Positions 36,792 through 55,508 are shown, counted from the first letter of the stretch. The stretch: DNA of 64,000 nt from Candidatus Aminicenantes bacterium UBA1061 (GCA_002316315.1 DCDG01000018.1:56074-120073), one strand, 5' to 3'. Program-made: numbers and translations. Notes: generated by a model from the letters alone, not told the origin.

Positions 36792-37045
36792 TTTAAAAAA
36801 TCCAGAAAAGGCGCAGTTTATAAGACGGGGACAGCCATCAGACTGAAGCCGCACTTCAGCCCGAAGAAAGCACACCGGCGGCGAACCAAAAGCAAGAGCC
36901 TTCCTCTGGCCAACACCTTTGAGCTACCTGATCTCGCCTTCAAAAAGATAAAAATAAGTCAGCCCTTTGGCTGTCCTGATTTCCCGGGCATCTACTACCC
37001 GCACAGCCAGCTCGACCACTTGTCCGGCAATTCCCTGAGGTGAGC
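36792..37045 (-). repeat. Copy B of the dnaE2 3' terminus (about 250 bp; reading frame kept except for one stop)
   Basis: About 88-90% nucleotide identity to 52653-52920. Minus-strand translation gives ...GQVVELAVRVVDAREIRTAKGLTYFY..., matching the DnaE2 C-terminus. Confidence 0.8.
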
Positions 37046-37124
37046 GATTGGGAGAAGCGGCCTTCAGCTTAGAGCTAATGGTAAGCTATCTCCTGGGCCG
37101 TTCAGCATCTTTTTAGCCTCTAAC

Positions 37125-38339
37125 TTATTGATTATGAATGATATCCGCTGGCCCGACCCCATTTATCGAATAAACATTCAACTTGTCAGCTGTATTGGAA
37201 AGACAGATCCGGCTAAGCTGCTTCATGACCTCAAGATCATAATTTTCAATATAAGCTATATATAGCCTGCCATCCATTATCTGAGCCAGATTGTATCTGA
37301 TAAAATTGAAATAACAGGCCTGGCCGAGCTGGCTAAAATTCAGATCGTAGACATCTACAATGTATCTCTTTTTATCATCACGCTGGCCAGTCCAGACATA
37401 TATTTTCCCATCATCAATGTTCAGGCCAAAAATTGCCGGAAAATAGCGTGAGGGCCCTTTTAGTTCCTGTAAGATACGTTCAGAATTTGGGAAACGGATG
37501 ATCTTCATGTCATTGTCAAAGACATTAAAATCCTGCTCCGTAATGAGTTCCTTCTTTATTTTCTTCCCTTTAAAGGTTTTAACCAGCTTTCCATCTTTAG
37601 AATACTTATAAACCAGATAGTCAAAACTATCAGTTATATAAATATTCCCGGCTTCATCCAGAGCAAAATCTGGGATAAAGGTGGCAATGGAGCTCCCATG
37701 GCCTTCTTTTTGTTCGTAAATTAATTGGCTATGATTTCTCTGGCTATCGTATTTATAGATTAATATCTTCTTCTCCTCATTCCCGCCTAAAAGATAAAGA
37801 TTCCCTTCGCGGTCAAAACTAATTTTGTCAATGAATAAACCAGATAGGTTTGCTGGAAGACGTAGTTCATTTTTAAAATGGCCATCCGCTGTAAATATTT
37901 CCAGAGGCCGCCCAAAACTTGAGCTTACCCAGATATCGCCCTGGGGATCAACTGCCAGACAGCCGATGGCTTGAAATTCACCCGGGCCCTGACCCTTTCT
38001 ACCAAAGGAGAATAAGAAATTCCCATTTTTATCATAGGCATCTATTTGCTCACCTCTCACTTTATCCCAGGCGAAAATAAGACCGTTTTCAACGGCGAAA
38101 TAACCAATCCAGGTATAATAATGACCGGATCCCTCATCGCCGATGGTAAAAAGGGGCTGGCTCGAGGCAGCTAATGACCTTATCTCTGCTTTCTGACTGG
38201 AACAACCAGCAGCCAAAAGTAAAGCCATAAAGAAAATGATTATCTCAGGTATAATGGCTAAACTTTTTTCCCGACACCAGGCGCACAAATCAAGCAGTCT
38301 ATGACCAGGTCTGAAAGTATCGGAAATTAGTTCAATCAT
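37125..38339 (-). CDS. NHL-repeat / 6-bladed beta-propeller lipoprotein, paralog 1 (start probably the internal Met at about 38228, giving MALLLAAGCSS)
   Basis: Carries the GRKGQGPGEF signature followed by ...D..G.IWV..., which is NHL-like. Has a lipobox. It is one of 7 paralogs in this window. Confidence 0.7.
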   Translation of the reverse strand: MIELISDTFRPGHRLLDLCAWCREKSLAIIPEIIIFFMALLLAAGCSSQKAEIRSLAASSQPLFTIGDEGSGHYYTWIGYFAVENGLIFAWDKVRGEQIDAYDKNGNFLFSFGRKGQGPGEFQAIGCLAVDPQGDIWVSSSFGRPLEIFTADGHFKNELRLPANLSGLFIDKISFDREGNLYLLGGNEEKKILIYKYDSQRNHSQLIYEQKEGHGSSIATFIPDFALDEAGNIYITDSFDYLVYKYSKDGKLVKTFKGKKIKKELITEQDFNVFDNDMKIIRFPNSERILQELKGPSRYFPAIFGLNIDDGKIYVWTGQRDDKKRYIVDVYDLNFSQLGQACYFNFIRYNLAQIMDGRLYIAYIENYDLEVMKQLSRICLSNTADKLNVYSINGVGPADIIHNQ

Positions 38340-38517
38340 CAGCTGCTCTCCTATTTAGCTTCAGTTTAAAGAAATGAAACCTTTCCTTTTTAGCCTTGAA
38401 AAGATTATAACAATTTCTCTAGCAATAATTAAAGAGTTTCTGACGGTTTCATTGAAAATTGAAAAGTGAATTGATTATAAACGACATGTGCTGGTCTGAC
38501 CCCATTTAGAGGGACTT

Positions 38518-39645
38518 TTAATCAGGGATCTTCCAGCGGGCAGCCAGGCATTTAGCGCTCTGCGGGGCATTTTTCGGGTCATCAACCTGGTAATAAAGGG
38601 TGACAATCTGCCCCCTATCCACTTCAACCGAGCTTGGATACCCGCAGTCAGTATTTGGTGCTGAGGCGGAAATTATAATCTTTTTATCCCACTCCCAGGT
38701 TTTCCCGCCGTCCCGGCTGAAGATAGCCCGAACTCCCATCGGCGCATTACGCTCCCCATAGCTCAAGAGAGTCTGTCCATTTTTGAGCTGTATAAGATCT
38801 GCCGGATGCTCCATGTCCTGGGTTATCTGGAAGGGCGGCGACCAGTGCTTACCCCCATCTTCAGAACGGCTCACAGCTAAATGCCCGCCTTTCTCCGAGC
38901 GCATAGCCGCCAGTAAACTGCCATCGGGGAGGGCCAGCACAGCTGTTTCATTAAAATGCTCACCAACAAGAGAAGGCTCTCCCCAGGTTTTCCCGCCGTC
39001 TTTTGAACGAAAGACGTAGCTTTGATTTCCGCGGTCGTCAAAAAAATCAAAATAGACTGCCATGATAACTGTGCCATCCTCGAGCTGGATAATCTTTCCA
39101 TAAGGCGAGACGGCCCCGCGGCCAGCATAAAATGAATGAATCTCCAGGCTCAGTTCAGGTTTCGTCCAGGTTTTTCCCTTGTCTTTTGAACGGATGACAT
39201 AAACGCCATCGAAAACCCATTTCGAGACGTCTTCAGGAAGTCTTTGCCCGTCAGCCTCATATCCGCTGAGGACAGCATAGGCCAGAAGAATTGTGCCATC
39301 AGCCAGTTGACCAAGTGCCGGGTTACGGTCGTCTTCTGGACCGTCAACAACCGTCCAGGGTTTGGACCAGGTTCGGCCGCCATCATCAGATATGACCAGA
39401 TCAAGGCGCCCGGCCCGGCTAAGGTGAGCGCCGCCACCCCTGATAACAGCCAGAATTTCGCCAGTTGATAGCTTGACCGCCACTGGAAAATAGCCTCCTC
39501 CTTCGACTGCCGTCACCTGATCCATTGAAGTGAAGGCCGCCATGCTGATACAACACATCAGTCCGGTGAGACTCAGAACCGCCAGCCACCGCCGGCCCCA
39601 CCTGTTATTCTTCTTGCTCTTCATTTCCTTTATTTCTTTTATCAT
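38518..39645 (-). CDS. BNR/Asp-box repeat protein (sialidase-superfamily beta-propeller), secreted
   Basis: Five S-x-D-x-G-x-T-W Asp-box motifs (SDDGGRTW, SKDKGKTW, SKDGGKTW, SEDGGKHW, SRDGGKTW). The N-terminus has RR followed by a hydrophobic stretch, which may be a Tat signal. Confidence 0.7.
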   Translation of the reverse strand: MIKEIKEMKSKKNNRWGRRWLAVLSLTGLMCCISMAAFTSMDQVTAVEGGGYFPVAVKLSTGEILAVIRGGGAHLSRAGRLDLVISDDGGRTWSKPWTVVDGPEDDRNPALGQLADGTILLAYAVLSGYEADGQRLPEDVSKWVFDGVYVIRSKDKGKTWTKPELSLEIHSFYAGRGAVSPYGKIIQLEDGTVIMAVYFDFFDDRGNQSYVFRSKDGGKTWGEPSLVGEHFNETAVLALPDGSLLAAMRSEKGGHLAVSRSEDGGKHWSPPFQITQDMEHPADLIQLKNGQTLLSYGERNAPMGVRAIFSRDGGKTWEWDKKIIISASAPNTDCGYPSSVEVDRGQIVTLYYQVDDPKNAPQSAKCLAARWKIPD

Positions 39646-39901
39646 ATGTCTTTTATCATATGGCCACCTTGTCTAAGGATTTCCCTTTATGCTTCGGGAC
39701 CTTGCAGCTCGCTTTTCTTTTTCATGCTCAAAAAAATCTGGCTATTTTTTACTGGCTAGACAGCATTGGCCCGATTCGGATCTACCAGCCTCATGGTTAG
39801 AAAAATGATACAAGTCAAGCTTGTCATCAGTTAACCATTTAATCCCAAATATATTGGGATTTTCAAGATTTTCATGTTTATGCTTCATCATGGTTTTAAA
39901 C

Positions 39902-40200
39902 TTCAAAAATGAACTTATTAGGGTGATAAAAAAGTGTGAAGGAAGGCGCAGTTTATAAGGCGGGGGCAGCTGTCAGACTGAAGCCGCACTTCAGCCCGAA
40001 GAAAGCACACCGGAGGTGAGCTAAAAGCCAGGGCCTTCTTCTGACCTACGCCCTCAACCTGCCCGCTCTCATCTTCGAAAAGACAAAAATAAGTCAAGCC
40101 GCGCGATGTTCTGATTTCCCGGGTATCCATTACCGGGATAGCTAGCTCGGTCATCTGACGGCACAATTCCTTGAGATGTTCGATCCGCAGCGGCGGACAC
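39902..40200 (-). repeat. Copy C of the dnaE2 3' terminus (about 300 bp; ORF 39918-40217 intact)
   Basis: Encodes ...REIRTSRGLTYFCLFEDESGQVEGVGQKKALAFSSPPVCFLRAEVRLQSDSCPRLINCAFL, which is 85-90% identical to the DnaE2 C-terminus. Confidence 0.8.
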
Positions 40201-40353
40201 CAGCGAGCCCTAAGCAAACTGCTAGCTATCCTACGCCGACTTATTTTTCTTTAAGCCATTATCTTATTGATTATTAACAAATTGTGTTAGCCCAACCCGC
40301 ATTTAAATATATAAGCTCCTCCCCTACAGCACAGGGGCCGGCACCAGCAATTG

Positions 40354-41526
40354 TTATTTCTTCCAGGTAGCCTGATAACAGCAAATATACTGATAACCTT
40401 CTTCGTCCTTCTCAATAGTGTATATTTTGCCGTTTTTTGCAAGAAAGGCTTGGCCTGTCATCTCACAGCGCGCGATAAGCTTCCCTTCAGCACTGAAGAT
40501 ATCCACCAAATAAGAATCCTTAGCCTTACCTTTCTCATAAGTCCTGACATAGAGCCGGTTCTCCTCATCAACAAAGAAACCAGAGAAAGCAGGATAGTTA
40601 GCCGGAAAAACTACCATCTCTTTCAAATTCATTCCCGGTGTCTCCGGTATCTGCTTGAGCATTTCTTCTTTATCTTTCTGACTTATAGACTGCGGTCGAT
40701 ATTCTTTTCGCACTATTTTGACCAGCTGGCCTTCCGGATTGAAATATTTAATTTCATAAGAGGAACTACGGCCATAAATAATATTTCCACTTCCATCCAG
40801 GCAATAATCATAAGTGATCGTAAAGGGATTAATCTTGCCGCCACCCAGGGGCGAAGCCATTAGCAGCGTATCAATTTTAAAAAGCTGGTTAAAATCAGCA
40901 TCATATTTAGCAATAGTATAGGCTATCGAATTCCCTTCCATCCCCATTTCGCAACCTACATATTGACCGCCGCTGTCAATTACTTCCAACATAGCCAGTT
41001 TCTTAGCGTAAGAAACTTCTCTCGTCATCTTACCTTCAAGGTCGGAATAAATCAGTTTTCGGTTACCACTATCATTTATCATCAGTTCGCGGTCAGATAA
41101 GAGCTGGAGTCCAGACGGAGCGTTCCACTCGCCCGGGCCCTGGCCTTCTTGGCCAAATTCTTTTAGCTTTTTGCCATTTGGATCGAAGACATTGACCTTT
41201 TTTGCCTTAAAATCCAGAACAAAAATCCGGCCGTCAGCCGCAACATCGGCTCCAGCTACAACCCCGAAGGCGCTTCCTCCTTGTTCCAGCTTTCCGATGG
41301 TAATTTCTTTGGTTAAAATCAATCTCTGAGAGCCAGAAGGTTTAGCTTTATTCTCGATTATCTGGACATCAGCTTTATCAGCCAGCCTGATAACGGCCTT
41401 ATCTGCTACGGAAAAAGCCGATACAGAAAAAACTGAAATCATGGCTACAAGGAAAACTGGCACATACATAAACGATCTGTGTGTAAATTCTTTTTTTCTC
41501 ATCTTCCTCCCCTTGCTTATCAACAT
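40354..41526 (-). CDS. NHL-repeat / 6-bladed beta-propeller secreted protein, paralog 2
   Basis: Signature GQEGQGPGEW, signal peptide, 390 aa. Confidence 0.7.
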   Translation of the reverse strand: MLISKGRKMRKKEFTHRSFMYVPVFLVAMISVFSVSAFSVADKAVIRLADKADVQIIENKAKPSGSQRLILTKEITIGKLEQGGSAFGVVAGADVAADGRIFVLDFKAKKVNVFDPNGKKLKEFGQEGQGPGEWNAPSGLQLLSDRELMINDSGNRKLIYSDLEGKMTREVSYAKKLAMLEVIDSGGQYVGCEMGMEGNSIAYTIAKYDADFNQLFKIDTLLMASPLGGGKINPFTITYDYCLDGSGNIIYGRSSSYEIKYFNPEGQLVKIVRKEYRPQSISQKDKEEMLKQIPETPGMNLKEMVVFPANYPAFSGFFVDEENRLYVRTYEKGKAKDSYLVDIFSAEGKLIARCEMTGQAFLAKNGKIYTIEKDEEGYQYICCYQATWKK

Positions 41527-41541
41527 TTTAAAATGGCTGCC

Positions 41542-42531
41542 TTATTTAGAGCGACCTGCGATAAAAGGCATCATAAATAAGCCCGGGTCCATTCCTTCTT
41601 CTTCCTTTTTCTTCTTTATAGCTCTTATGTCACTTTTAGTGAGTGCTCCTCCGCTGGATTCAGTATCTTCAACTGGATTAAGTTCTGTAACCTTTTTGTT
41701 TTCTATCTTGCCCATAACATAAAGACAATAGGGGTTGTTTGGTGCTTTTTCCAAAGCTAACTTAGCATAGTTCTCAGCCTCATCAATTTTCCCGGCTTTA
41801 AGAAGGGTAAAAGCTAAGGAATAAAGATATCTGGTGTTTTCTGATTTTGAAAGAGCTTCTTTCCAATAATACTCTGACTCCTGATATTTTCCCCTCCTGA
41901 AGAAGGCAGTCGCCAGGTCGCGGAAATACACTTCATTATCCTTATACTTGCTTTCCAGACCAGAGTCATCTTTTAAGGCAATCATTGACCAATTCTCTTC
42001 CTCCCCTGAGGTCCATAACTCTAAAAAATCTTTCTCTTTGACAAAAATATTTTTCCCTAAAAGAGGATCAGCTAAGACAATCGAGTCCTTTTGGTATCCA
42101 ACCACCAGTCGGTAATGTCCTTTATCGATTTCTTTTGAAGCTTTCTGAAAAACCACCACCGGAACTCCCTTTGAGATTAGCTCCTTTAAATCATTCAAAT
42201 TACCCTTAAAAGAATATGACTTCAGCCCTTTTGATTGAGGATAAAAAACCATCTCAGAGAGCTTCATCACTTTTTCCTTTTCGTCAAAAACTCTGGCAGC
42301 AACCATTTCCTGTTTTTCATCTAAGCCATAAAAATGAAGCATCATCTGCAAAACCGCTGGCCCGCACCACCCGTTTTTCTCCTGCTTATAAAATTTCATG
42401 TTTTTTATAACATTGGCTTTTTTAGGAATGGATTCAGCCTGATAGAAATAGGTATGAGAGGCACATGAAGAAAAAACGCTTATCACAAAGATTAGTAGCA
42501 AATTTTTTAGCCTTTTGTTTTTACCTTTCAT
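41542..42531 (-). CDS. Lipoprotein with a C39-like papain-fold peptidase domain (Peptidase_C39_2 type) and C-terminal TPR repeats
   Basis: Lipobox VFSSC. Candidate catalytic Cys in NGWCGPA and candidate His in KGHYRLVVGY. TPR-like repeats follow (YWKEALSKSEN..., AENYAKLALEKAPNNPY). It lies directly upstream of NHL paralog 2 on the same strand, separated by 15 bp. Confidence 0.55.
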   Translation of the reverse strand: MKGKNKRLKNLLLIFVISVFSSCASHTYFYQAESIPKKANVIKNMKFYKQEKNGWCGPAVLQMMLHFYGLDEKQEMVAARVFDEKEKVMKLSEMVFYPQSKGLKSYSFKGNLNDLKELISKGVPVVVFQKASKEIDKGHYRLVVGYQKDSIVLADPLLGKNIFVKEKDFLELWTSGEEENWSMIALKDDSGLESKYKDNEVYFRDLATAFFRRGKYQESEYYWKEALSKSENTRYLYSLAFTLLKAGKIDEAENYAKLALEKAPNNPYCLYVMGKIENKKVTELNPVEDTESSGGALTKSDIRAIKKKKEEEGMDPGLFMMPFIAGRSK

Positions 42532-42905
42532 TTATGTCCCTCAAAAATTTATTTTCCTCTCTATTTATCCAGAGGCAATTCTCCATCCCGATTGATAAGG
42601 CTTTTTTTAATTGCTCTTCGGGAGCACTCAGAGATACCCTGGTTCCAGTTTCAGAAGGGCTATACCAGATTCTCGCCCTTAGTTGCTGGAATGCTCGTTC
42701 GAATGCCAATTTTTCCCCTCGCCGTCTTTAAATATCAGTCAAAAAAAGATGCATGTCAAATACAGACCTTATTCAGGCTAGCACATAATATCCAGGGCAG
42801 ACCGAGAAGTAGAGAGGGTTGTCCACAAGGTGTTTGGCGGCTTGCAACCCTGGACGGCGGAGCAGAGGCGCAGAGATCAAAAGTTCTATAGTTTAAAAGC
42901 AAGAC

Positions 42906-42968
42906 TTCCCCTCTTAAAAGTGTTATTGAAGCTTTTAAAGGAAGGGAAGTGAGCCCCTGGGTGTCATA
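42906..42968 (+). mobile_element. Solo fragment matching the 5' end/RBS region of the IS481-like element at 50406-50468 (inverted orientation)
   Basis: About 60 bp (CCCTCTTAAAAGTGTTATTGAAGCTTTTAAAGGAAGGGAAGTGAGCCCC) are about 85% identical to the reverse complement of 50406-50468. Confidence 0.45.
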
Positions 42969-43064
42969 GTATAAGTTTACAAATAACTCAGTATATACAT
43001 ATATACCATAATTACGATGAGCTTTTAAATGAGTCGGCAGGGTTAGCTAGAAGAGCAGTAAGGT

Positions 43065-43318
43065 TTAAAAGCTATGGAGAAAGGCACAGTTTATAAGGCG
43101 GGGGTAGCCGTCAGACTGAAGCCGCACTTCCCCTCTAAGAAAGCACACCGGAGGCGAGCCAAAAGCCAGAGCCTTCCTCTGCCCCACGCCCTCAACCTGC
43201 CCGCTTTCATCTTCAAAAAGATAAAAATAAGTCAGGCCGCGCGACGTTCTGATTTCCCGGGCATCTACTACCCGGACAGCCAGCTCAACCACCTGTCCGG
43301 CAATTCCCTGAGGTGAGC
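43065..43318 (-). repeat. Copy D of the dnaE2 3' terminus (ORF 43065-43292 intact)
   Basis: Encodes MVELAVRVVDAREIRTSRGLTYFYLFEDESGQVEGVGQRKALAFGSPPVCFLRGEVRLQSDGYPRLINCAFL. About 90% nucleotide identity to the dnaE2 3' end. Confidence 0.8.
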
Positions 43319-43438
43319 GATTGGGAGAAGCGGCCTTCAGCTTAGAGCTAATGGTAAGCTATCTCCTGGGCCGTTCAGCATCTTTTTAGCCTCTAACTTA
43401 TTGATTATGAATGATATCCGCTGGCCCGACCCCATTTA

Positions 43439-43716
43439 GATGGCAGGTTGAAAGATAACCCGGCAGCCAGATCTTTTGACCTTCACCTTGATTTCATGAT
43501 ACTTGCCGTCCCAGCTTTCCGGAACAGGATAACCAAGAACGTAATAGGCACCGGTCAGAGTCTCAATTTTCTCAATATGGTCGGGAGCAGCATAGATTGT
43601 CCCGGTGTACTGACCTCCAGTCTTCCAGGCTATCTCTCGAAGAGAAACGGTTCCCCTTGGATGAATAGATTCCTGAATTATTAGATATGTATTATCTTCC
43701 GTATCAACCGGAAAGC
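43439..43716 (-). pseudogene. Fragment (about 280 bp) of a VWA-like gene paralog, homologous to 47237-47516
   Basis: About 88% nucleotide identity to the C-terminal coding part of the 46807-48468 gene. No start codon, and it is fused directly to other repeat fragments. Confidence 0.65.
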
Positions 43717-44039
43717 CCTTTCAGGTTAAGAGATGGCATCCGAAACTAAGGAGAAGTGACGAGCTTCTGTATCAATGATCTATCAAGAATTAGTATCGAT
43801 GGCTTGACGAGAGTTAAGGCTAATAGAAATAATGAATGGCGAGTTGCAACAAAATTTTTGTGGTGAGCAACACTAAAATAACAGCCGGCGTCTAAACATT
43901 TAAACCTTGAAGCCTAAATCAAAAAAAGACCTCCTCTCCAATCACTATTTTCCCCCTCCTTATCTACCACACCCTTGGCTGAAGAGCCTACAAAGACTTG
44001 ACTTTCTTTTTTTTTGCGTTAACATATTAAAAAGAAAGC

Positions 44040-45023
44040 ATGATGAAAGCTACTAGCCTTACCCACAAGGACAAATTGTGTTTTCTTCAGGGTTCTGTTA
44101 AGAAGCGCAAAACATGTGCGATTGGACTGATAGCCGTGCTGTATATTCTTACTCTTATGTCATGTGTATCACCAAAACCGTCCGACAAGACAAATATTCT
44201 GCCTGAATTTGTGGCAGCCGCTTATGGAGATAAAAATCTAGTTTCTAAGGAGTTGCGCGGCTGCACGTTCGTAATTTTTATCAATTCTACAGAGACCTAT
44301 CACATCGATCTCCTCGAGAAAGTATACAGAGATTATTCAGACGACGTCAATATTATCGCTTTTGTTGGCCAAATTTCCCTTCTCCCACTCTTGCACGACA
44401 GATTCCCGAGAGCCTGGATCATAGATGATAGCCAACAACTTTTCGTTGAAAAGTTTGATGCTAGATCTTGTTGCGGCCGATTTTTCATCTATGATTCGAG
44501 CAAACAATTAATCGCAGCTGGGAACAATACAGTATTCTATGAAGAAGGAACTAGATCAATTTTACAAAGAACCGTGGACCATATCAGTTTCGATATTTCA
44601 GTTCTGATACCCGAACAGAGCGTATCAGATAGTCCCGTGTTTCGAGAATTATGGGATCGATTACGTGTCCAAGAAAAGAGTACATATGTAATATTTATGC
44701 TGTCTGATATTTGTGGCTCCTGCCCCGTTGCCAAGACAATTTCGGAATTGTCAGCAGCATTAATCAGGCAACTAGATACCATTGGAGTAGCATTTCTCTT
44801 CTCGTCAGATTTTTCAGATATCGATATCCGGAACTTCAAAGTAAAATGGTCAGTTCCCTGGCCGTGTATACGTGCCGATGGCGATCTGGCTCTTAAATGG
44901 AATGATTTAATTCATGATTTTAGTCGAGAAGAACTGAATCAGATCCTTCTGCTTGTGGATTCGAGAGGAAAGTTGCTGGCCATAAACCAGGCCGCTTTTA
45001 AGAAACTGGTAGAGGTGAAATAA
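44040..45023 (+). CDS. Tandem thioredoxin-fold (TlpA/redoxin-like) lipoprotein
   Basis: Lipobox LTLMSC. The second domain carries CxxC (DICGSCP). The first domain is redoxin-like with a single Cys (RGCTF). It is separated by 1 bp from the downstream NHL paralog 3. Confidence 0.55.
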   Translation: MMKATSLTHKDKLCFLQGSVKKRKTCAIGLIAVLYILTLMSCVSPKPSDKTNILPEFVAAAYGDKNLVSKELRGCTFVIFINSTETYHIDLLEKVYRDYSDDVNIIAFVGQISLLPLLHDRFPRAWIIDDSQQLFVEKFDARSCCGRFFIYDSSKQLIAAGNNTVFYEEGTRSILQRTVDHISFDISVLIPEQSVSDSPVFRELWDRLRVQEKSTYVIFMLSDICGSCPVAKTISELSAALIRQLDTIGVAFLFSSDFSDIDIRNFKVKWSVPWPCIRADGDLALKWNDLIHDFSREELNQILLLVDSRGKLLAINQAAFKKLVEVK

Positions 45024-45024
45024 G

Positions 45025-46237: not shown

Positions 46238-46450
46238 ATGAAAAGAGTCATCTGGGTGATCGGAGTAATAGGCTTTTTATCTGTGAGTCTGATCATCCCA
46301 ACGCATGCCGTGGTGAATACTCCGCTGAAATGCTCATCTTTGGTAGAATGCGGCGATTGGTTAGAGTGCCCGGAGCGAGGACGCGAAATTCAGCGCTGCG
46401 TACTCGATTGCGAAAATGGCCCAATCGTTTTTTGCCCTGGTCCAATGTGA
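46238..46450 (+). CDS. Small secreted cysteine-rich peptide (70 aa, 8 Cys in the mature part)
   Basis: Signal peptide, then a Cys-rich region of about 45 aa (KCSSLVECGDWLECPERGREIQRCVLDCENGPIVFCPGPM). Lies immediately downstream of NHL paralog 3. Confidence 0.4.
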   Translation: MKRVIWVIGVIGFLSVSLIIPTHAVVNTPLKCSSLVECGDWLECPERGREIQRCVLDCENGPIVFCPGPM

Positions 46451-46806
46451 TAATGAAGAACCTCAACGAGGCCCTGGTAATTCCTTCAGGATGTACTTAT
46501 AACTGTAAGCGCGCGGGCTGAAAAGATAATCGCTGATCTTTTCGGCCAAGCATTGAGGCCACAGCTTGATTGAGTGAAAACATAGGCATAGCCAAAGAAG
46601 GTCTTCTTATAAAAACAGGGTGTTAATATTTTCATTTGACCCGAGCATGGATGTGTATACATAAACCAGTCAAATACCCACAGGTTTTTGAGCTCCTCTA
46701 AATACAGGATTAAGATCGGTGCAGCGATCAACAATCCGATGATCTTTTTAATACTTCTTGTGAAGGCTAGACAAGAGCCATCGCCTTTGTGGCAATTACA
46801 TCTTTT

Positions 46807-48468: not shown

Positions 48469-48666
48469 TTTTACCCCTCCAGGAATCTATAAATTTATCT
48501 TAAGCTTTCCGCCCTGAAATTAGCAACTTTTGTGCCAGAGCCATTTCCCCAACCTTTCCTGATATATACCGCTTTATACTGTCTGTCCTGTTCGACTTCA
48601 TGAACACCTGTCCACTAAAAATGACATCATGCTTCAGGGCGCAGGCCGTGCCCTACCTAAATTTCG

Positions 48667-49797
48667 TCACTTCAGCCCTGGCTTAATCAAATCCCAGTTT
48701 TTAATAGCATAGCGCTTGATCATGACCAGCCCCTTTTCTTCATCTACATGTCTGGCCCAGAGATGTCCTTTCCGGATGACAAGGCAGCGGCTGTAAGGCA
48801 GGGTTGTGCGGTAAAGGTAATAGCCGTCACGGCTGTAAATATCATATTCATGCCCGGCTGAAGCTTCAGCTTTTGGGTTAGTCCGAAGAACCCAGATCCT
48901 GCCGACATCATCCGTATAAAACCTATAAAAGAAGGGCTGCTCTTTAATCGGTAGATATTTAGCTACATCTTCAGCCTCTTCGGGAGGAATCGGCCTGGCC
49001 GGCTGCTGATTTTTGATAATGCAAAGCTTCCGTCCTTCTGTATTCATCAGGGTCAATTCATACTGCCTGGAAAAACCATAGACAAAAATCTCAGGGTTAA
49101 CAGCTGCTGCCTGTAAATCATATTCATATCCGGTGACGACAGAGAGAGTCCTTCCTCCCTCAACTTTCGTATAATTTTCGTACGGTACCTTAATTACCTG
49201 AAGGAGACTCCTTCCATCTGGCCCAATTTTTTCGAGAGATTTAGCTCTGCCTTTCTCATCAGCCAGTGACATAATACCCCAGATGTATCCTTGCCCATCG
49301 ACAAAGAAATCAGTGCAATAACTGCCCAGAGTAATGGATTTGAGATAGGTTCCATCCAGCTGGTAAAGAATCAGGCTGAATATGCTATCTCTTACATACA
49401 AAGTCTTTTTATCAGGTCCGATGAAGAGATTACGTGGCGATTGATACTCACCTGGCCCCTGACCGAAACCACCAATGGTCTTAAGATAATTTCCATTAGA
49501 GTCAAAAACCTTTAGAGCTGGCGGCTTCATTTCTGTAAAATAAATCCTTCCTTCCTCATCAACCACCAGGTCAAAAATATTGCCCAGCATGGTTTCTGGT
49601 TTATCCTCGCTGCCAATGCTCAGCTCCTCTTCCAGTTGAAGAGAAAGAGTGCCAAAAGCAGGCTCAGCTGGATTATTAACCACCGTCAGGCCGCCTTCCT
49701 TTTCTATTTTCCCCTTCCAGGCCTGATTTTCCTGCTTCCCTCCACAGCAGATAAGAAGCAAGGGCAAGAACCAGAGAATCAATTTAAGTCTTTTCAT
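48667..49797 (-). CDS. NHL-repeat / 6-bladed beta-propeller lipoprotein, paralog 4
   Basis: Lipobox LLLICC. Signature GGFGQGPGEY. Confidence 0.7.
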   Translation of the reverse strand: MKRLKLILWFLPLLLICCGGKQENQAWKGKIEKEGGLTVVNNPAEPAFGTLSLQLEEELSIGSEDKPETMLGNIFDLVVDEEGRIYFTEMKPPALKVFDSNGNYLKTIGGFGQGPGEYQSPRNLFIGPDKKTLYVRDSIFSLILYQLDGTYLKSITLGSYCTDFFVDGQGYIWGIMSLADEKGRAKSLEKIGPDGRSLLQVIKVPYENYTKVEGGRTLSVVTGYEYDLQAAAVNPEIFVYGFSRQYELTLMNTEGRKLCIIKNQQPARPIPPEEAEDVAKYLPIKEQPFFYRFYTDDVGRIWVLRTNPKAEASAGHEYDIYSRDGYYLYRTTLPYSRCLVIRKGHLWARHVDEEKGLVMIKRYAIKNWDLIKPGLK

Positions 49798-49911
49798 CTT
49801 TCCTTCCTACTCACTGTTTTTGTTGTTTTCATAAGTGATATATCAGTCTGATTAATAAGCACTACTCTCAGACCAGTTCGATTTGTTTAAAACAGCGAGT
49901 TTGATTATCTT

Positions 49912-50030
49912 ACCATCTTCTCTTCTGAACTCCATTGTCTAAGCTTCATCCTGACACCTCCTTACTCAGTATAATCTCTATCTCTTTGAGGTGTCCACCT
50001 CCTCAGGGGGTCAGTATAACCTCTTATACT
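49912..50030 (-). mobile_element. Solo left-end remnant of the IS3-family element (inverted repeat, 5' UTR and first ~12 codons of orfA)
   Basis: About 90% identical to 59950-60070. The reverse complement begins ATGAAGCTTAGACAATGGAGTTCAGAAG, encoding MKLRQWSSE as in orfA at 59993. Confidence 0.7.
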
Positions 50031-50409
50031 TAGCACTGAGCTTGTAACGTTTAAGCACATAGCGGACAGTAGAAGGCTTAACCTCAACTCCCCGTTCGCG
50101 AAGTATCCTGGCCACCCGGTCTCGGCCAAAGCCAGTCTTCTTCCTCTCGGCTATGATCAGAGCTTCCACCGCCGCTGACGTTCTCCGAGGCGAGCGTTTT
50201 GGCCTTCGAGACAGCGGCTTCAGCCCAGCCTCTCCTCTCTCCTCCCACCGCCTTACTACCTTCCTCACTGTCTTGCGAGTCGTTCTAAACACCCTGGCTA
50301 CTTCTGAGATATTCCCACTCTCCTCATAGGCCTTAATCACTGCCTTCCTGGCGAATTCCACTGACCCCTTGAAAAGCTCACAGTAACTGAGGTATAAAGA
50401 TTCTGTCAC
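50011..50409 (-). CDS. IS481-family transposase N-terminal (HTH) fragment; the DDE integrase domain is missing
   Basis: The pattern ...GLKPLSRRPKRSPRRTS...STVRYVLKRYKL is typical of IS481-type transposase N-termini. The ORF stops after 132 aa, and its last codons run into the IS3 end remnant. Confidence 0.5.
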   Translation of the reverse strand: MTESLYLSYCELFKGSVEFARKAVIKAYEESGNISEVARVFRTTRKTVRKVVRRWEERGEAGLKPLSRRPKRSPRRTSAAVEALIIAERKKTGFGRDRVARILRERGVEVKPSTVRYVLKRYKLSAKYKRLY

Positions 50410-50575
50410 TCGGGGCTCACCTCCTTTCTTTTAAGAGTTTCAATAACACTTTTAATGGAGGGAGCCCTGCTTTTTCAAGTACCAAGCTCATAAATCTCCG
50501 GCCTTCTTCTATCCCTGTCCCTACTGCCGGCTCTCCAGCACGTCGCGACCAAAGCTCCTTACTCCTCCATCCTCC

Positions 50576-50617
50576 CTGGATACTATGTCTTAACCTGAAT
50601 GAGAAAAAGACTTGACA
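50576..50617 (+). promoter_or_regulatory. Second copy of the conserved promoter-like motif, upstream of the small peptide/NHL paralog 5
   Basis: TGGATACTATGTCTTAACCTGAATGAGAAAAAGACTTGACAG versus TGGATATGATTTACTGATCTGAATGAGAAAAACCATTGACAA. Confidence 0.4.
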
Positions 50618-50690
50618 GACCGTTTTTTTTATTCATTTTTAAAGCAGAAGGAGATGATGGAAATAAAAATCTGAAAAAGGGGAATATACC

Positions 50691-50918
50691 ATGAAAAAAG
50701 TTGTGTCTGTTCTTCTCTTGATTCTCATTTTTATGCGGATCACCATGAGTATTTTAAATTTCACAACAAAAGTCTACGCTTCAGCACCGTCTATTTTCGG
50801 CACGACAACCAGGGGCGGGAGCTATTATGATCAGCTTAGATGGTACCTTCAGGGCCGGTGGATGTACGGAGATTACTATTGCATTGGTGAAGCATCTAAT
50901 TGTTCCATAGTCAACTAA
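50691..50918 (+). CDS. Small secreted peptide (75 aa; Tyr/Gly/Cys-rich C-terminal part)
   Basis: Signal peptide, then ...GGSYYDQLRWYLQGRWMYGDYYCIGEASNCSIVN. Lies 40 bp upstream of NHL paralog 5. A TTGACA-containing conserved motif sits upstream. Confidence 0.35.
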   Translation: MKKVVSVLLLILIFMRITMSILNFTTKVYASAPSIFGTTTRGGSYYDQLRWYLQGRWMYGDYYCIGEASNCSIVN

Positions 50919-50960
50919 ATTCCTATATCATCTCCTCCTATCCATGAAAAAGGACATAAG

Positions 50961-52055
50961 ATGAGGAAAATAGGATTAAAAGGTTTACTAACATTTGTCA
51001 TTTATCTTCAGATGGTGAGTATCTGCTTCTCGCAACTAGTAAAATTAGATAAAAAAATACCGATAGAAGAAAACGCACTTATTGTCTCTGGCTCTTTTGC
51101 CCTGTTACCGAATGGAACTTTCATTTTTACCGATATTAGAGATGAGAATAACCAGATTAAAATTATCAATGACAAGGGGAAGATAATAAAAGCCTGGGGT
51201 AAAATGGGACCAGGACCAGATGAGTTCAGTGGTCTGGCAGAAATCGATTATCAGAATCCTTACTTAGCCATTATGGATGCAGGCAAAAGATGCATTCATA
51301 TTTTTGAGACAGACCTCGATAAATTCAGAAAAATAGGAGACATCCTCGCCTGGGAGGCAACAGATTTTATTAAATTATATGATAAAAGCGTTTTAATGGG
51401 CGGGTATATCACTTCGCCGAAAGGAAAGGGCTACATAGTATTCGCGAGAGATTTTAATGGAGGTAATACGCAATATATTCTTCCCTTTGAATATAAATAT
51501 GGAGAGCGTTCCTTAAGTGAACATCAAAAGACCAGAGAAGAAGTTTCAGGTATATCATCTAGAGATTATGCTGACATTTATGAAGATGACCTCTTTTATA
51601 TAAGCGATGTGAGAGTCAGGGTGATTAAGACCAATCTCAAGACCAAAAAGATAGAAATCCTCGGGAAAGATCCAAAGAATTTCAGAGCGCTGGTGATGGA
51701 TAAGAAAACCAGGAACGAATTACTGCAACCGCAAACTGGCAAGGGGAAAATGCAAGAGATTTTAAATAAATTTTCTTTTGTAACTCGTATTTTTGTTGAC
51801 AAAGACTATTTTGGCCTGATCTTTTTGAACCGGGAAAAAAAGGTCGGCAATGAACTCTATTTTGTGGCCTATGTTCAAATTTATGATCACTCTGGAAAGG
51901 TGTTGTATGAAGGTCAGCTGGAAGACTTTTATACTGAAGAGAAGATTTCTCCACTTGTTTATCAAAAAGGGACAGGCTGCTTGTATTTGCTTGGTATGAC
52001 CAGCAGTGAACTCGGCGTAAAATATGTGATTTATAAATATCAGATTAAATTATGA
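50961..52055 (+). CDS. NHL-repeat / 6-bladed beta-propeller secreted protein, paralog 5
   Basis: Signature GKMGPGPDEF, signal peptide, 364 aa. Confidence 0.65.
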   Translation: MRKIGLKGLLTFVIYLQMVSICFSQLVKLDKKIPIEENALIVSGSFALLPNGTFIFTDIRDENNQIKIINDKGKIIKAWGKMGPGPDEFSGLAEIDYQNPYLAIMDAGKRCIHIFETDLDKFRKIGDILAWEATDFIKLYDKSVLMGGYITSPKGKGYIVFARDFNGGNTQYILPFEYKYGERSLSEHQKTREEVSGISSRDYADIYEDDLFYISDVRVRVIKTNLKTKKIEILGKDPKNFRALVMDKKTRNELLQPQTGKGKMQEILNKFSFVTRIFVDKDYFGLIFLNREKKVGNELYFVAYVQIYDHSGKVLYEGQLEDFYTEEKISPLVYQKGTGCLYLLGMTSSELGVKYVIYKYQIKL

Positions 52056-52550
52056 AGAGGCTTATTTATTTTTTAGCGGCAGTAATCGTCCTTTATCTGA
52101 TCAGCGTAATTTATAAATATCAGGTAACACCAATATTGATTAATTTCCCGGTCGATGAACTGGGAATAATCCCTAAAAAGAAGTCAGGTTGAATCTTGTG
52201 CTGTTCTTTTCAAAAAAAATTGCACACCGTGTGTTCAACATATAGTAAATTATTTAAACGAGGCACCAGAAAGTATTCAGGTTGTGGGAATAGTCAAGGA
52301 GGAAGAACTAAAGTTTTTAGATGAGATTAGAGAAACAACTGGGGCGAAATTTCCAATTAAAAGCATAAAAAAATGGAAGAAATACAGACCAAATTATGCT
52401 CCCACTTTATATGGGGTTGGCTCTGATGGTAAAATATATTTTGTCATCGCTTGTACTGCCCTCGAAGAGAATTATTGGCGGGCATATGTTGATGAATTTA
52501 TGAGAAAAGCTGAATATTTGCTACTAAAACCAAGTTTAAAATCAAATTGA
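52052..52550 (+). pseudogene. Frameshifted membrane-anchored thioredoxin-like (CxxC) gene
   Basis: An ATG overlapping the NHL5 stop opens a 46-aa transmembrane-anchor ORF ending at about 52190. A different frame then continues as ...SCAVLFKKNCTPCVQH... through ORF 52284-52550, resembling the second domain of the 44040 redoxin. The frame change lies in or near A5-A8 homopolymers. Confidence 0.45.
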
Positions 52551-52652
52551 GATGTTAGATAATAAAGATGGTCTTATGATAAGAATCATGATTGTGTGGT
52601 ACTGATTCAATTTCCATTGGATATATAAGATACTTATATTTATTTGACTGAT

Positions 52653-55508
52653 TCAAAAAGTTGATAAGAAGGCACAGTTTATAAGGCGGGGGTAGCTGTC
52701 AGACTGAAGCCGCACTTCAGCCCGAAGAAAGCACACCGGAGGTGAGCCAAAAGCCAGAGCCTTCCTCTGGCCCACACCCTCAACCTGCCCGCTCTCGTCT
52801 TCAAAGAGATAAAAATAAGTCAAGCCCTTGGCTGTTCTGATTTCCCGGGCATCTACTACCCGCACAGCCAGTTCGACCACCTGACCGGATAATTCCCTGA
52901 GGTGAGCAACTCGCAGCGGCGGCCGCCGGCCATTCAGTAGCTCCAGCGGGTCGCCAGCCGGCAGGAAGCCCAGTTTTTCCAGCTGAAGTTTTTTCTTCTC
53001 CTCATCATTGATGTCTGCTACCTCGACTTCGGAGACACCATGAAAATAGTGCAGAACCTGCTGGCTGCGGTTTGGTTCAAGCGAATCAAGAGCTCCAGCC
53101 TGGATTAGAGCCAGCAGGTCGCTCTGGCCTGGTTTTACCCGTCCGAGGAAGTCTTCCACCGACAAATAGACGCCATCTCTCTCCCGCTCGTTGATGATTT
53201 TTTCTAGGCTCCTGGCGGTTAGATTTTTAATGGAACCAAGGCCAACTCTAATCGCCTTCCCTTCGACCTCAAAGCGATAACCGCTGCGGTTGACATCCGG
53301 GCCAAGGATCGTTAAGCCCAGCCTCTTAGCTTCCTCAATGTATTCCGGAAGCTGGTAGTAACCACCGGCCGCATTAAGCACAGCCACCATATAGACCAGA
53401 GGATAATGAGCTTTAAGATAAACGGCTTCATAAGCCATGAGGGCATAAGAGGCGCTATGAGCCCGGTTAAAAGAATAGGCCGAAAATTTTTCCATCTTCT
53501 GCCACAGCTCCTGAATCTCAGCCTGAGCATAGCCGCGGCTTTCGGCCCGGTCAAAGAATTTCCGGCGCAAAGCCTCATCCACCCGGCGCTTTTTTAGCTG
53601 ACGGCGCAAAAGTTCTCCTTCTTCCGGCGGGAAACCAGCCACCCTTTCTGCCACCTGCATCACCTGCTCTTCATAAAACATCAGGCCGCCGGTTTCGGGG
53701 AGAATCTTAGCCAGCAGCGGGTCTGAAGGAGAAGCCCTCCCCTCGCGTCGCCTCAGAAAGGCTTCTTTCATCCCGCTTTCAGTCGGACCAGGTCTGATTA
53801 AAGCCAGAGCATGGATTAAATCGTCCAGGTTTTCCGGCTTCATCCGGCGGAGGAGATTCATCATGGCCGGGCTTTCCACCTGAAAGCAGCCAATTGTTTT
53901 CGCTTCGCGGAGAAGAGTAAAAGTCTGGCGGTCAGCAGGCGGAAGATACTCAAGATGAAGAGTTTTTCTGGTCTCGGCTATAGCTGTCAGCCCGCGGGTA
54001 GAAAGGAGGTCAAGCTTAATAAGCTGGAGTTCTTCCACCGTGTCCCGGTCATAATGGCACATGAGGAGTCCTTTGGCTGATTTTTCAAGCGGCAGGTAGC
54101 GGTCAACTGGCGCCGGGGTCAAAATTACACCCCCAACATGGAGGGAAATCTCGGCGAAAACACCGTCCAGCTCAGAAGCCAGTTTCCAGATGTCCAGGCA
54201 GCCGGCCTGAGGCGGCATCTGCCGCAAATAATCAGGCTCGGCGAACATCGGCACCCGCTTGCTCATCGTCCTGGCTTCTTCCGGCGAGATGCCAAAAGCC
54301 CGGGCAGTTTCATAAAGGGCCGAGCGCGCCCGGTAATTCTTCAGGCTGCAGACATAAGCTGCACCGGTTTCTCCTGTCCCGTAACGTTTGAGTACATACT
54401 CCAGGACTTCATCCCGGCGGCTCGAGTCAAAGTCAAGGTCAAAGTCAGGTGGATCAGGCCGGCCGCGGTTTAAAAAGCGTTCAAAATAAAGGCCATACTC
54501 CACCGGATTAAGACGGGAAATGCCCAGAAGATAGGCCAGATAGGAAGAAGCTCCCGAGCCACGGAGATTGTGGTAGATGCCCTGGCGGCGGGCAAATTCC
54601 ACCACGTCACAAACAACAAGAAAATAAGGGGCAAAACCGCTCTCTTCAACCACCTGAAGCTCACGCACCGCCCGGGCCCTTTCTTCCCAGCTGAGATTTT
54701 TCAGCCTGGATAACCGGTCATTAATCACCTGACGCAGGGAAACAGGGAAAAGATCAGGCGGAAGAGGCGGAACAATATTTTTAAAAGAGAAATCTATTTT
54801 TTCGATAAGCTCCTGGTGGCGGCGAAAAATTGGTTTGACCCGGTCGCCATATTTTTTTAAAGCAATTTTTTCCTGCTCCGGGCCAAAATTTCTGAGGACC
54901 GGCGAAAGCCTTTTAAGTTCGGGCGGATAAGGAATTTTTTTCTCTATCGTCCGAAGGAGGACCAGGCGCGGCGCACTGGTCAGAAATTTCAGCGGCTCAG
55001 TCCAGAGAAGAGGAAACCCTGTTTTCGCTGAGAGCCACTCGCCGCCAGGCAGGTTGTTAAGACCGCAGCCAAGATAAAGATCATCCGGTGCCCGCTCCCC
55101 AATCTGGCGAATAAAACTCACCCACTCTTCGAGTTCCACTTCGGACACAGGCAGCTTTTCCGGCAGGATAAAAATGGTAGCGAGTCCATCCGGTTCCAGA
55201 AACTCCCGGCGATTAAAAATCTCAAGCAACCGGTGATAGCCCTTTTTCTCTTTGATGAGAAAAACATAGCGGCTGCCCCTTATGGGAAAATCCAGTTCAA
55301 GCTCGCAGCCAAAGACTGGCTTAAAGCCGCGCCCCTCGCTCAGGGCCTGCCACTTACCCCAGCCATAAAAAGCAGCCACATCGGTCAGGGCAGCTGCCGG
55401 GAGGCGATTTCTCTCTGCAAATTGCACGAGTTCTTCCAGGGTCAGGCTGCCTTCTCCCCGGCTAAAGGTTGAATGAACTCTTAAAGGGATAAACATTTTT
55501 GGACTCAC
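52653..55508 (-). CDS. dnaE2: Error-prone DNA polymerase III alpha-like (DnaE2/ImuC-type)
   Basis: 951 aa with a PHP N-terminal domain, a Pol III alpha core and a C-terminal OB region. It is the last gene of a lexA-dinB-dnaE operon and overlaps dinB by 4 bp. Confidence 0.65.
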   Translation of the reverse strand: MSPKMFIPLRVHSTFSRGEGSLTLEELVQFAERNRLPAAALTDVAAFYGWGKWQALSEGRGFKPVFGCELELDFPIRGSRYVFLIKEKKGYHRLLEIFNRREFLEPDGLATIFILPEKLPVSEVELEEWVSFIRQIGERAPDDLYLGCGLNNLPGGEWLSAKTGFPLLWTEPLKFLTSAPRLVLLRTIEKKIPYPPELKRLSPVLRNFGPEQEKIALKKYGDRVKPIFRRHQELIEKIDFSFKNIVPPLPPDLFPVSLRQVINDRLSRLKNLSWEERARAVRELQVVEESGFAPYFLVVCDVVEFARRQGIYHNLRGSGASSYLAYLLGISRLNPVEYGLYFERFLNRGRPDPPDFDLDFDSSRRDEVLEYVLKRYGTGETGAAYVCSLKNYRARSALYETARAFGISPEEARTMSKRVPMFAEPDYLRQMPPQAGCLDIWKLASELDGVFAEISLHVGGVILTPAPVDRYLPLEKSAKGLLMCHYDRDTVEELQLIKLDLLSTRGLTAIAETRKTLHLEYLPPADRQTFTLLREAKTIGCFQVESPAMMNLLRRMKPENLDDLIHALALIRPGPTESGMKEAFLRRREGRASPSDPLLAKILPETGGLMFYEEQVMQVAERVAGFPPEEGELLRRQLKKRRVDEALRRKFFDRAESRGYAQAEIQELWQKMEKFSAYSFNRAHSASYALMAYEAVYLKAHYPLVYMVAVLNAAGGYYQLPEYIEEAKRLGLTILGPDVNRSGYRFEVEGKAIRVGLGSIKNLTARSLEKIINERERDGVYLSVEDFLGRVKPGQSDLLALIQAGALDSLEPNRSQQVLHYFHGVSEVEVADINDEEKKKLQLEKLGFLPAGDPLELLNGRRPPLRVAHLRELSGQVVELAVRVVDAREIRTAKGLTYFYLFEDESGQVEGVGQRKALAFGSPPVCFLRAEVRLQSDSYPRLINCAFLSTF

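Follow-up and report, generated by a model that had tools for sequence, protein, structure and literature searches.

The 64,000-nt stretch of DNA from Candidatus Aminicenantes bacterium UBA1061 analysed in this study (GCA_002316315.1 DCDG01000018.1:56074-120073; hereafter the window) carries an SOS operon headed by lexA with two polymerase genes, and the 3' end of its dnaE2-like gene is present in three further direct copies within an array of genes for secreted proteins, located between this gene and a conserved decarboxylase gene (Table 1). Relatives place the genome with Ca. Saccharicenans-type Aminicenantes. The Y-family partner polymerase scored 317.8 bits with NCBIfam NF002677 (DNA polymerase IV; cut-off 256), which assigns it to DinB/Pol IV rather than ImuB. 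The C-family protein passed the Pol III alpha superfamily model only and stayed below the NCBIfam cut-offs for DnaE and DnaE2 (476.8 bits with the error-prone polymerase model NF004225, cut-off 939); therefore, "dnaE2-like" was chosen as the name, shortened to dnaE2 below, and the operon is lexA-dinB-(divergent Pol III alpha). An exact look-up of the 951-amino-acid (aa) DnaE2 in the protein collection gave no match, and the start codon used there probably differs.

The position of dnaE2 is syntenic in the relatives L002-L006 and L043 (L numbers denote the compared loci). The order in L001-L005 is lexA, Y-family polymerase gene, dnaE2, convergent decarboxylase gene and DUF72 gene, with zero stored copies of the dnaE2 end, and the distance from the dnaE2 stop to the decarboxylase stop is 0.33-2.2 kb in these loci as against 20.3 kb in the window (32376-52653).

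A repeat search followed by alignment revealed four direct copies of the dnaE2 3' end, ungapped and in register, all on the minus strand like dnaE2 itself. Copy E is the working end of the gene, and A, B and C are stored copies downstream of it. The 21-nt anchor GGCRCAGTTTATAAGRCGGGG was found at + strand positions 36810, 39945, 43083 and 52671 (four matches, against none expected from 100 shuffles), and the start-to-start distances of the copies are 3135, 3138 and 9588 nt. Over 216 coding nt, the identity to copy E is 87.5% for A, 86.6% for B and 89.8% for C, and the stored copies are 79-86% identical to one another. They encode the same OB-fold-like DnaE2 C-terminus with 80-90% aa identity. 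The reading frame of copy C is intact, copy B is an intact 99-aa open reading frame (ORF; P0007) present on 21 contigs, and copy A has one in-frame stop within codons 873-951 (...FEGEIR*LKG...). Two ORFs antisense to copies A and C (36753-37043, + strand, 96 aa; 43074-43316, + strand, 80 aa) were called as genes in JGI contigs, probably spuriously because the coding repeat is GC-rich.

These measurements agree with a preliminary description of the window, made from the sequence, which had reported three additional same-strand copies of the dnaE2 end at spacings of 3.1, 3.1 and 9.6 kb. Several of its details need correction: the single stop that it assigned to copy B is in copy A, the boundary core that it proposed (AAGGCRCAGTTTATAAG) lies 18 nt ahead of the stop within ordinary coding sequence (...RLINCAF), no conserved core was found at the repeat boundary, and the ~20 bp of homology that it placed past the stop is reduced in the window to about 5-15 nt, versus ~75 nt in L043 and L054. 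The copies themselves exist as described, but their extent was drawn too short on the 5' side, where the decayed codons ~843-865 and a 56-nt element unrelated to dnaE2 had been omitted.

This 56-nt element (TAAATGGGGTCGGGCCAGCGGATATCATTCATAATCAATAAGATAGAGGCTTAAAG), here called CEE, lies directly 5' of every stored copy in the window's clade. It is built of two conserved blocks flanking a variable spacer of ~10 nt and has a stop in each of the three frames. Every module of the array carries this element at its 3' end. The decayed stretch (dnaE2 codons ~843-865) separates CEE from the ORF-preserving part of the stored copies, and the composite repeat is about 0.32-0.45 kb long, extending in some lineages over ~75 nt of 3' UTR as well. 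The frame-breaking indels in codons 843-865 (..AGCTCTAAGCTGAAGGCCGC..) are identical across all clade-1 stored copies, which also have the same CEE junction; these common features indicate that all stored copies of the clade descend from one ancient junction. The copies of a second group (L006, L045, L046, L049) start at codon 843 too, behind a different conserved sequence of ~105 nt, and L045 has a further copy starting at codon 749. The 11-mer TAATCAATAAG is common to CEE and the junction of the L006/L045 group and also occurs elsewhere in the window, which makes it a weak likeness.

CEE was also observed without a dnaE2 piece: in truncated form after the BNR gene of the window, after u553 and BNR in L054, and after M64 by the decarboxylase gene in L052, L055 and L065-L067. 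A search with an nhmmer profile detected ~45 copies, all co-oriented with dnaE2 and inside the arrays of this clade, and none outside the arrays in ~800 kb of compared sequence. The M64 ORF of most relatives ends within a CEE copy that is read in frame (...KGQAT-NGVGPAHFVYNQ), so that their M64-like protein ends with 12 CEE-supplied codons (NGVGPA..YNQ), and likewise the in-frame CEE at the end of prop1 (...NGVGPADIIHNQ) provides the last 12 codons of that gene (NGVGPA..YNQ). The native sequence past the dnaE2 stop runs on into the M64 upstream region. CEE probably represents the 3' terminus of the adjacent M64-like gene.

At the M64 gene of the window, the protein ends ...KGQATGL* (34128-34170) where relatives read on into a CEE copy, and the CEE after it seems mostly deleted; an extra 186-aa ORF is located at 33112-33672, between M64 and the decarboxylase gene. 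Two contigs otherwise 100% identical to the window have small replacements, one exactly at the junction of CEE and repeat A (L058 10583-10649 versus window 37044-37143) and one inside prop1 (L057 10342-10395 versus window 37413-37547). This is within-population heterogeneity, and that of L058 lies at a repeat edge.

Table 1. Coordinates of the repeat copies, the modules of the array and the flanking genes in the window.
Feature	Coordinates	Strand	Evidence	Remarks
Repeat copy E, working dnaE2 3' end	52653-52922	-	repeat search, alignment	codons ~863-951 + stop
Composite repeat C	43061-43439	-		CEE 43382-43439; decayed codons 843-872 at ~43319-43381; ORF-preserving codons 873-951 at 43061-43318
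Composite repeat B	39918-40306	-		diverged CEE 40249-40306, junction, intact 99-aa ORF 39918-40217 (codons ~863-951)
Composite repeat A	36790-37165	-		CEE 37109-37165, overlapping propeller ORF end; decayed codons 843-872; codons 873-951
CEE copies with a dnaE2 piece, in reading direction	37165-37109; 40306-40249 (diverged); 43439-43382	-
Solo truncated CEE	38450-38509	-	sequence comparison, nhmmer	after BNR gene, no dnaE2 fragment
Unit B-A	37125-39645	-	Pfam	BNR protein 38518-39645; DUF5128 propeller prop1 37125-38339
Unit C-B	40354-42531	-	Pfam	C39-peptidase/TPR protein 41542-42531; DUF5128 propeller prop2 40354-41526
Composite 9.3-kb block between E and C	43444-52550	mixed	repeat search (family D2), Pfam
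u553 remnant	43444-43659			within E-C block
u327 and prop3	44040-46110	+		within E-C block
VWFA protein u553 (acidobacterial)	46807-48468	-		within E-C block
prop4	48667-49797	-		within E-C block
Truncated IS481/IS630-like helix-turn-helix (HTH)	50011-50409	-		within E-C block
prop5	50961-52055	+		within E-C block
u88	52284-52550	+		within E-C block
M64-like peptidase gene	34128-36641	-	Pfam	terminal module
Orn/DAP/Arg decarboxylase gene	31120-32376	+	Pfam	conserved right-hand hotspot flank, convergent with dnaE2
dnaE2-like C-family polymerase gene	52653-55508	-	Pfam PHP, DNA_pol3_alpha, finger, HHH_6	951 aa
Y-family polymerase gene, DinB/Pol IV-scoring	55505-56764	-	Pfam IMS, IMS_C
lexA	56785-57411	-	Pfam LexA_DNA_bind + Peptidase_S24; NCBIfam TIGR00498 above cut-off	first SOS-operon gene

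The cargo between the repeats comprises DUF5128 six-bladed propellers, BNR, C39-peptidase/TPR, VWFA (u553) and M64-like peptidase proteins together with debris of insertion sequences (IS), and signal peptides are present on the cargo proteins. The preliminary description had the repeats bracket NHL cassettes; this is right for the NHL/DUF5128 propellers, but the BNR, C39-peptidase/TPR and acidobacterial VWFA genes and the IS debris belong to the cargo as well. The contents of different units are mutually unrelated. The modules ending in CEE are co-oriented with dnaE2, and the 9.3-kb block also has genes on the opposite strand. M64 always follows the last repeat in the clade (L043, L047, L050-L052, L054, L055, L065-L067).

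Beside repeat C, an internal 216-nt remnant of a second u553 gene matches 47247-47462, with ~438 nt deleted between CATC microhomologies relative to L043; it is the trace of an older u553-CEE-repeat unit. A sequence of ~100 nt next to the truncated HTH (50510-50618) recurs in inverted orientation in L043 (10420-10521) and L054 (8323-8431), each time as a solo copy after the last repeat and before M64, and it may be an IS end or a miniature inverted-repeat transposable element. Propeller paralogues are also found upstream of lexA (57608-58681, +; 60414-61520, -), where an IS3-family transposase gene separates them and a serpin gene (62264-63556) comes after them. A promoter/terminator scan returned the same counts as shuffles and was uninformative on read-through.

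The comparison of the locus among relatives demonstrated that this arrangement is not fixed. Among 42 species-level Aminicenantes loci, extra copies occur in L006 and L007 only, while L018 has a relic of 17 aa and L042 an isolated fragment; additional loci were found by metagenome and exact-protein look-ups. The number of stored copies is zero in L001-L005 and L048, one in L043 and in L006, at least two in L054 and L050, and three in L045 as in the window. Written with dnaE2 reading from left to right and R for a repeat, L043 (dnaE2 95% aa identical) is dnaE2-[u553]-R-M64, L054 is C39TPR-prop2-R-[u553-BNR-prop1]-R-M64, L047 is dnaE2-[prop1-like]-partial R-…-partial R-[C39TPR-prop2-BNR]-R-M64, and L050 is R-[BNR]-R-M64. 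The order in L066 and L067 is u553-CEE-prop1-CEE-BNR-CEE-R-M64-CEE, with prop1 before BNR, opposite to the window. Thus u553-BNR-prop1 occurs in L054 and L007, u553-prop1-BNR in L066 and L067, and BNR alone in L050; the BNR and prop1 genes recur in other orders and contexts in L047, L050, L053, L054 and L066.

In L071, prop2-CEE-junction is followed by a fragment 99.9% identical to the working dnaE2 end of the window together with the 4.8 kb that follow it there. Because of this identity, one and the same repeat sequence is the working end in the window and a displaced fragment in L071. The C39TPR-prop2 unit is upstream of the u553 block in L071 and L054 and downstream of it in the window, and the unit order of L071 is a cyclic permutation of the window order. 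These data bear out the proposal that the dnaE2 3' end is a hotspot of cassette accretion, since relatives have zero, one, two, three or more stored copies with differing blocks and orders; one identical arrangement in all related genomes, which would have spoken against the proposal, was not observed.

We considered whether a chimeric or collapsed contig, and hence faulty assembly, could have produced the repeats. The window is metagenome-derived, and repeat-associated assembly ambiguity is present in L007 and L063. However, the repeats are 79-90% identical with short perfect tracts and would not collapse, window positions 33885-48231 are 100% identical to the independent JGI contig L056 over 14.3 kb, the copy B ORF recurs on its 21 contigs, and L054, L071 and L055 independently confirm the junction types. 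Therefore, an artefact, which the preliminary description had named as a way in which its account could fail, is extremely unlikely.

A static local segmental duplication of the dnaE2 end and a propeller gene, followed by neutral decay without ongoing mobility, would agree with direct repeats at a regular spacing of 3.1 kb, with propeller paralogues recurring between the copies, with the stop in copy A and with the relaxed constraint on copy B. The contents of the units are unrelated to one another, however, and their number and order differ among near-identical strains as well as related species. The substitution pattern also argues against it. Under neutral decay in place, a ratio of nonsynonymous to synonymous substitution (dN/dS) near 1 is expected. 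By the Nei-Gojobori method over 72 codons, dN/dS was 0.10 for E-A (dS 0.47), 0.09 for E-C (dS 0.38) and 0.10 for A-C (dS 0.67), as compared with 0.05-0.09 for orthologous working dnaE2 genes; the value for E-B was 0.38, indicating relaxed constraint on copy B. Since a ratio of ~0.1 at dS 0.4-0.67 is far from the neutral ~1, the divergence of the stored copies therefore arose mostly during service as working ends, or working ends repeatedly overwrite the copies. The repeats are moreover mosaic, and we regard a static duplication as very improbable.

The mosaic structure was evident from 15 copies, in which 42 biallelic informative sites within 225 nt gave a Hudson-Kaplan Rm of at least 18. Incompatible site pairs cover the whole repeat, and multi-site haplotype blocks are common to working ends and fragments. 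The L054 copy that corresponds to the displaced fragment of L071 begins as B-type sequence and becomes E-type at CCGCCGCTGCG. Orthologously placed repeats have diverged further (83-89% identity) than the adjoining cargo (94-96%). The working gene takes part in these exchanges: dnaE2 of the window and of L043 are ~94% identical along the gene and 89% and 85% identical in the last 100 codons, and in the comparison with L044 the identity falls from 94% to 83% and 79% from codon 890. Judging from these profiles, the working dnaE2 3' end is evidently swapped between strains. The suggestion that the gene end is regenerated or exchanged is thus upheld, as working ends differ between strains and the stored copies are ORF-preserving.

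The array also moves between species. L055 and L062 share ~10.6 kb of array with the window at 99% identity, with a breakpoint in the 3' part of prop1, whereas identity to the window is 87% for M64 and ~80% for the decarboxylase and DUF72 genes. Because the array is 99% identical while the flanking genes are 80-87% identical, the comparison indicates that the array was recently transferred between species by recombination in shared sequence. In L065 (DJWO01000006.1), L050, L072 and L073, the CEE-repeat-M64-decarboxylase arrangement is kept, but the 7-10 kb upstream of it do not contain lexA-dinB-dnaE2; these lineages seem to have lost or relocated the polymerase operon, with an orphan gene end left behind. 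Arrays without a dnaE2-like gene within this distance fit an accessory polymerase.

A further indication of unit movement came from L007 (JAKPCG010000051.1), a MEGAHIT contig of 5066 nt that begins and ends with the same 141 nt (1-141 = 4926-5066), giving a 4925-bp loop of repeat-u553-BNR-prop1. Its repeat starts as the 5' part of the downstream copy in L054 and continues into the 3' flank of the upstream one. This hybrid junction is suggestive of the expected product of recombination between the L054 repeats that flank the unit.

Taken together, we consider it probable, with modest confidence, that ordinary homologous recombination and gene conversion between the composite repeats remove, add, duplicate and reorder units and replace the working end. 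The simplest origin would be a single old tandem duplication that started at dnaE2 codon ~843 and ended shortly after the M64 stop, as we infer from the junction anatomy: M64 invariably forms the last module, the native sequence after dnaE2 continues into the M64 upstream region, and a duplication reaching the M64 end would yield exactly the junction between CEE and codon 843. The repeats would then serve as portable homology, both within one chromosome and with DNA imported from related strains or species. Units would be looped out and put back elsewhere in the array, changing unit number and order, and the working dnaE2 3' end would be traded with stored copies. Stored copies overwritten by the working end, or alternating as such, would keep a signature of purifying selection 3' of the shared indels. 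Selection on dnaE2 would filter the exchanges; this would be why ORF-likeness is confined to the part 3' of the indels and why crossovers importing the indels were never seen in working genes. Variable arrays, mosaic repeats, a swapped working end and array transfer between species backgrounds were observed, and a RecA-type mechanism and circular intermediates are our inference. Unequal recombination predicts units that lie between direct repeats, relatives that differ in the number and order of these units, and junctions with hybrid repeats, all of which were seen, and the intact dnaE2 frame with the old end displaced downstream as an ORF-preserving fragment is what a displaced gene end predicts. 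Of the models offered in the preliminary description, unequal recombination between the repeats is accordingly the one that fits best the variable units, mosaic repeats and hybrid junctions.

Several observations weigh against the homologous-recombination account. The repeats of the window are 79-90% identical with perfect tracts of at most ~55 nt, and homologous recombination should be depressed between such sequences. The cut of the L007 contig falls directly behind the last position at which the two flanking repeats of L054 differ, and the contig may be an assembly-graph loop from a tandem array instead of a free circle; similarly, the permuted junction of L063, whose halves are 97.4% and 100% identical to the window, may be a chimeric assembly. 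The tandem-duplication origin is read from the anatomy of the junction. The left edge of CEE (T followed by AAATGGGG) meets at least eight unrelated upstream contexts, among them a truncated cysK-like fragment in L052 and the internal u553 piece at window copy C, and it usually lies 0-10 nt from a stop codon (48 nt after prop2), truncated genes included. CATC microhomology accounts for one edge deletion, at window copy C, and the edge pattern is not obviously expected from random replacement of gene content. The CEE of L053/L066 looks like a hybrid of two CEE types that are only ~75% alike, and this implies a crossover within ~55 nt, which would be short for RecA. The recombinase search viewed ~10 kb of flank per locus, so that a recombinase encoded elsewhere in the genome is possible.

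The observations on CEE lead to a different explanation, a site-specific cassette system in which a recombinase encoded elsewhere acts on CEE or on a site at codon ~843 and moves circles of a gene plus CEE, with or without the dnaE2 end. We view it as unlikely. CEE is discrete and has a sharp left edge, it is found at every module's 3' end in the same orientation, its two conserved blocks surround a variable spacer, and its ~45 copies are confined to the arrays within the ~800 kb compared. Single-gene modules are permuted at CEE, and the hybrid-like CEE of L053/L066 would also agree with exchange at this element. The dnaE2 homology starts at about codon 843 both in the clade and in the L006/L045/L049 group, with largely different upstream sequences, and most modules are co-oriented with the LexA-linked operon. 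Such a system could be likened to integron cassettes or to integrase-less cis-mobilisable elements accreted at an att site.

The results of the search for such a system pointed the other way. Pfam and NCBIfam scans covering nearly all large ORFs of the window detected neither a tyrosine nor a serine recombinase, as the preliminary description had stated for integrases and tyrosine recombinases, and none was detected around the arrays in L045, L047, L050, L055-L067 and L071-L075 (~20 loci, ~10 kb of flank each). The mobile-element genes seen instead were an IS3 DDE transposase (58844-59692), the truncated IS481/IS630-like HTH and an IS91-like Y2_Tnp fragment in L065 (946-1404). CEE and its junction, folded as single-stranded DNA, formed no stable stem (z +0.94 and -0.05 versus shuffles), and CEE has no hairpin or inverted-repeat build. 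Integron cores (GTTRRRY/RYYYAAC) were absent on reading the listed CEE copies, and an Rfam search of 32-58 kb with E up to 1 gave zero matches. A conserved CTGAAG-N5-CTTCAG hairpin in the coding repeat folds no better than shuffles, and the dnaE2 3' end was not among the conserved windows in an analysis of synonymous sites in seven orthologues. Neither the fragment peptide nor CEE matched viral contigs. A likeness of CEE to the E. coli Xer/dif site, judged by eye, was dropped for its poor match to the XerD arm and lack of dyad symmetry. A template/variable-repeat pair as in diversity-generating retroelements was rejected, as the substitutions are not adenine-specific.

The limits of the repeats likewise vary by lineage, with 5' limits at codon 749, at codon 843, or at ~843-851 with decay, and module 5' edges are not fixed, since the sequence upstream of prop1 after dnaE2 in L047 differs from that after CEE elsewhere. 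Within the dnaE2 part of the repeat, crossovers occur at scattered positions, and the in-frame coding role of CEE at the M64 and prop1 ends agrees with a gene-end remnant. With no recombinase found in the scanned loci, no hairpin, no core conservation and no constant limit, these results argue against an integron-like or att-core mechanism. The integron-like or tRNA-island-like version in the preliminary description is therefore disfavoured. It is doubtful that CEE is the recombination site of a previously unknown gene-cassette system, integrase-less or trans-encoded, behind an SOS (LexA) operon. In that rather unlikely case, single genes with a 56-nt non-hairpin site at their end would be captured and shuffled, and the travelling dnaE2 3' copy would spare the polymerase from inactivation.

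The variable 5' limits also bear on a further possibility, namely repeated independent one-sided events of homology-facilitated illegitimate recombination, in which imported DNA anchors in dnaE2, its far end joins slightly upstream and the old end is displaced downstream. The limits at codons 749 and 843 in L045 and ~843-851 in the window's clade, the resemblance of stored copies to former working ends of diverged lineages, and the movement of array segments between species would all agree with such events. In the window's clade, however, the copies have one junction and the same indels, which points to one event that was propagated. We consider this explanation improbable for the array as a whole; it would explain origins but not the present dynamics, for which recombination between the composite repeats is preferred.

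A full-text literature search on dnaE2 as an integration site returned unrelated mentions only, and several known systems offer comparison. In E. coli, the 3' end of icd is duplicated by e14 or phage 21, with the displaced end remaining as the icdC fragment downstream, and recombination between icd and icdC removes the intervening DNA and gives a chimeric functional gene (PMC13626634). The dnaE2 array resembles this case in that the 3' end of a coding gene is duplicated, the working gene is intact, a C-terminal fragment lies downstream and the differences are largely conservative. The difference is that e14, a prophage of 15 kb, encodes a site-specific integrase of its own and uses a defined att site; no integrase was found in the array, whose units are 2-9 kb of secreted-protein genes, several in tandem, with variable repeat limits and scattered crossovers. 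In rhs and cdiA loci, recombination of the main gene with an orphan produces a full-length chimera, and the interval is deleted or amplified (PMC3967940). The array is like the rhs-CT/cdiA-CT orphans in its displaced 3' fragments, homology of a few hundred bp and small genes in between, and the growth of those loci is thought to proceed via horizontally acquired modules. There, however, the payoff is a new toxic C-terminus with an immunity gene, whereas the stored ends of the dnaE2 array are nearly the same, the cargo varies and the main gene is a polymerase.

The array shares with tRNA-gene islands and with accreted integrative elements the direct repeats of a target 3' end and an element number that varies between strains. 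In the accretion of integrative and conjugative, integrative and mobilizable, and cis-mobilizable elements of the ICESt1/ICESt3 type, 3'-end direct repeats separate successive elements, and integrase-less elements can persist between att sites. For this, one or more of the elements must carry a tyrosine or serine recombinase, and the att cores must be short and identical. Neither was found in the dnaE2 array, and the dnaE2 repeats are 250-450 nt long and 79-97% identical. As in integrons, a fixed locus contains mostly co-oriented small modules with a ~56-nt element at or near the stop codon, strain variation and a LexA-linked gene upstream, but no IntI was found and CEE is without the imperfect palindrome and R'/R'' cores of attC. 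The duplication of a piece of an upstream gene, as seen here, is not known from integrons. The variable region between the conserved dnaE2 and decarboxylase genes, with inter-lineage replacements that break in shared sequence, is like a hotspot of horizontal gene transfer, and the change in unit number through direct repeats is like tandem amplification. Unlike in ordinary hotspots, internal copies of the flanking gene end multiply the crossover points and exchange repeatedly with the working gene.

Based on these comparisons, the array is best read as an integrase-free variant of displaced-3'-end arrays such as icd/e14 and the rhs orphans, and as such it would be new for the gene and the phylum. 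The term "undescribed" in the preliminary description is fair to that extent, as no literature report was found for dnaE2 or Aminicenantes, but the architecture has known analogues.

On this reading, an accessory multi-gene array can be built and reshuffled without visible mobile-element machinery, with the duplicated end of a neighbouring gene multiplying the crossover points, and the array can be exchanged between species. The locus would also be a natural case of stored gene ends kept working by exchange with the live copy, which bears on how pseudogene-like fragments may escape decay. If CEE were a recombination site after all, the array would represent a new cassette system, a functional analogue of integrons made from different parts. 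The array marks a turnover locus of secreted propeller, peptidase and VWFA genes in an uncultured phylum, which is useful for strain tracking.

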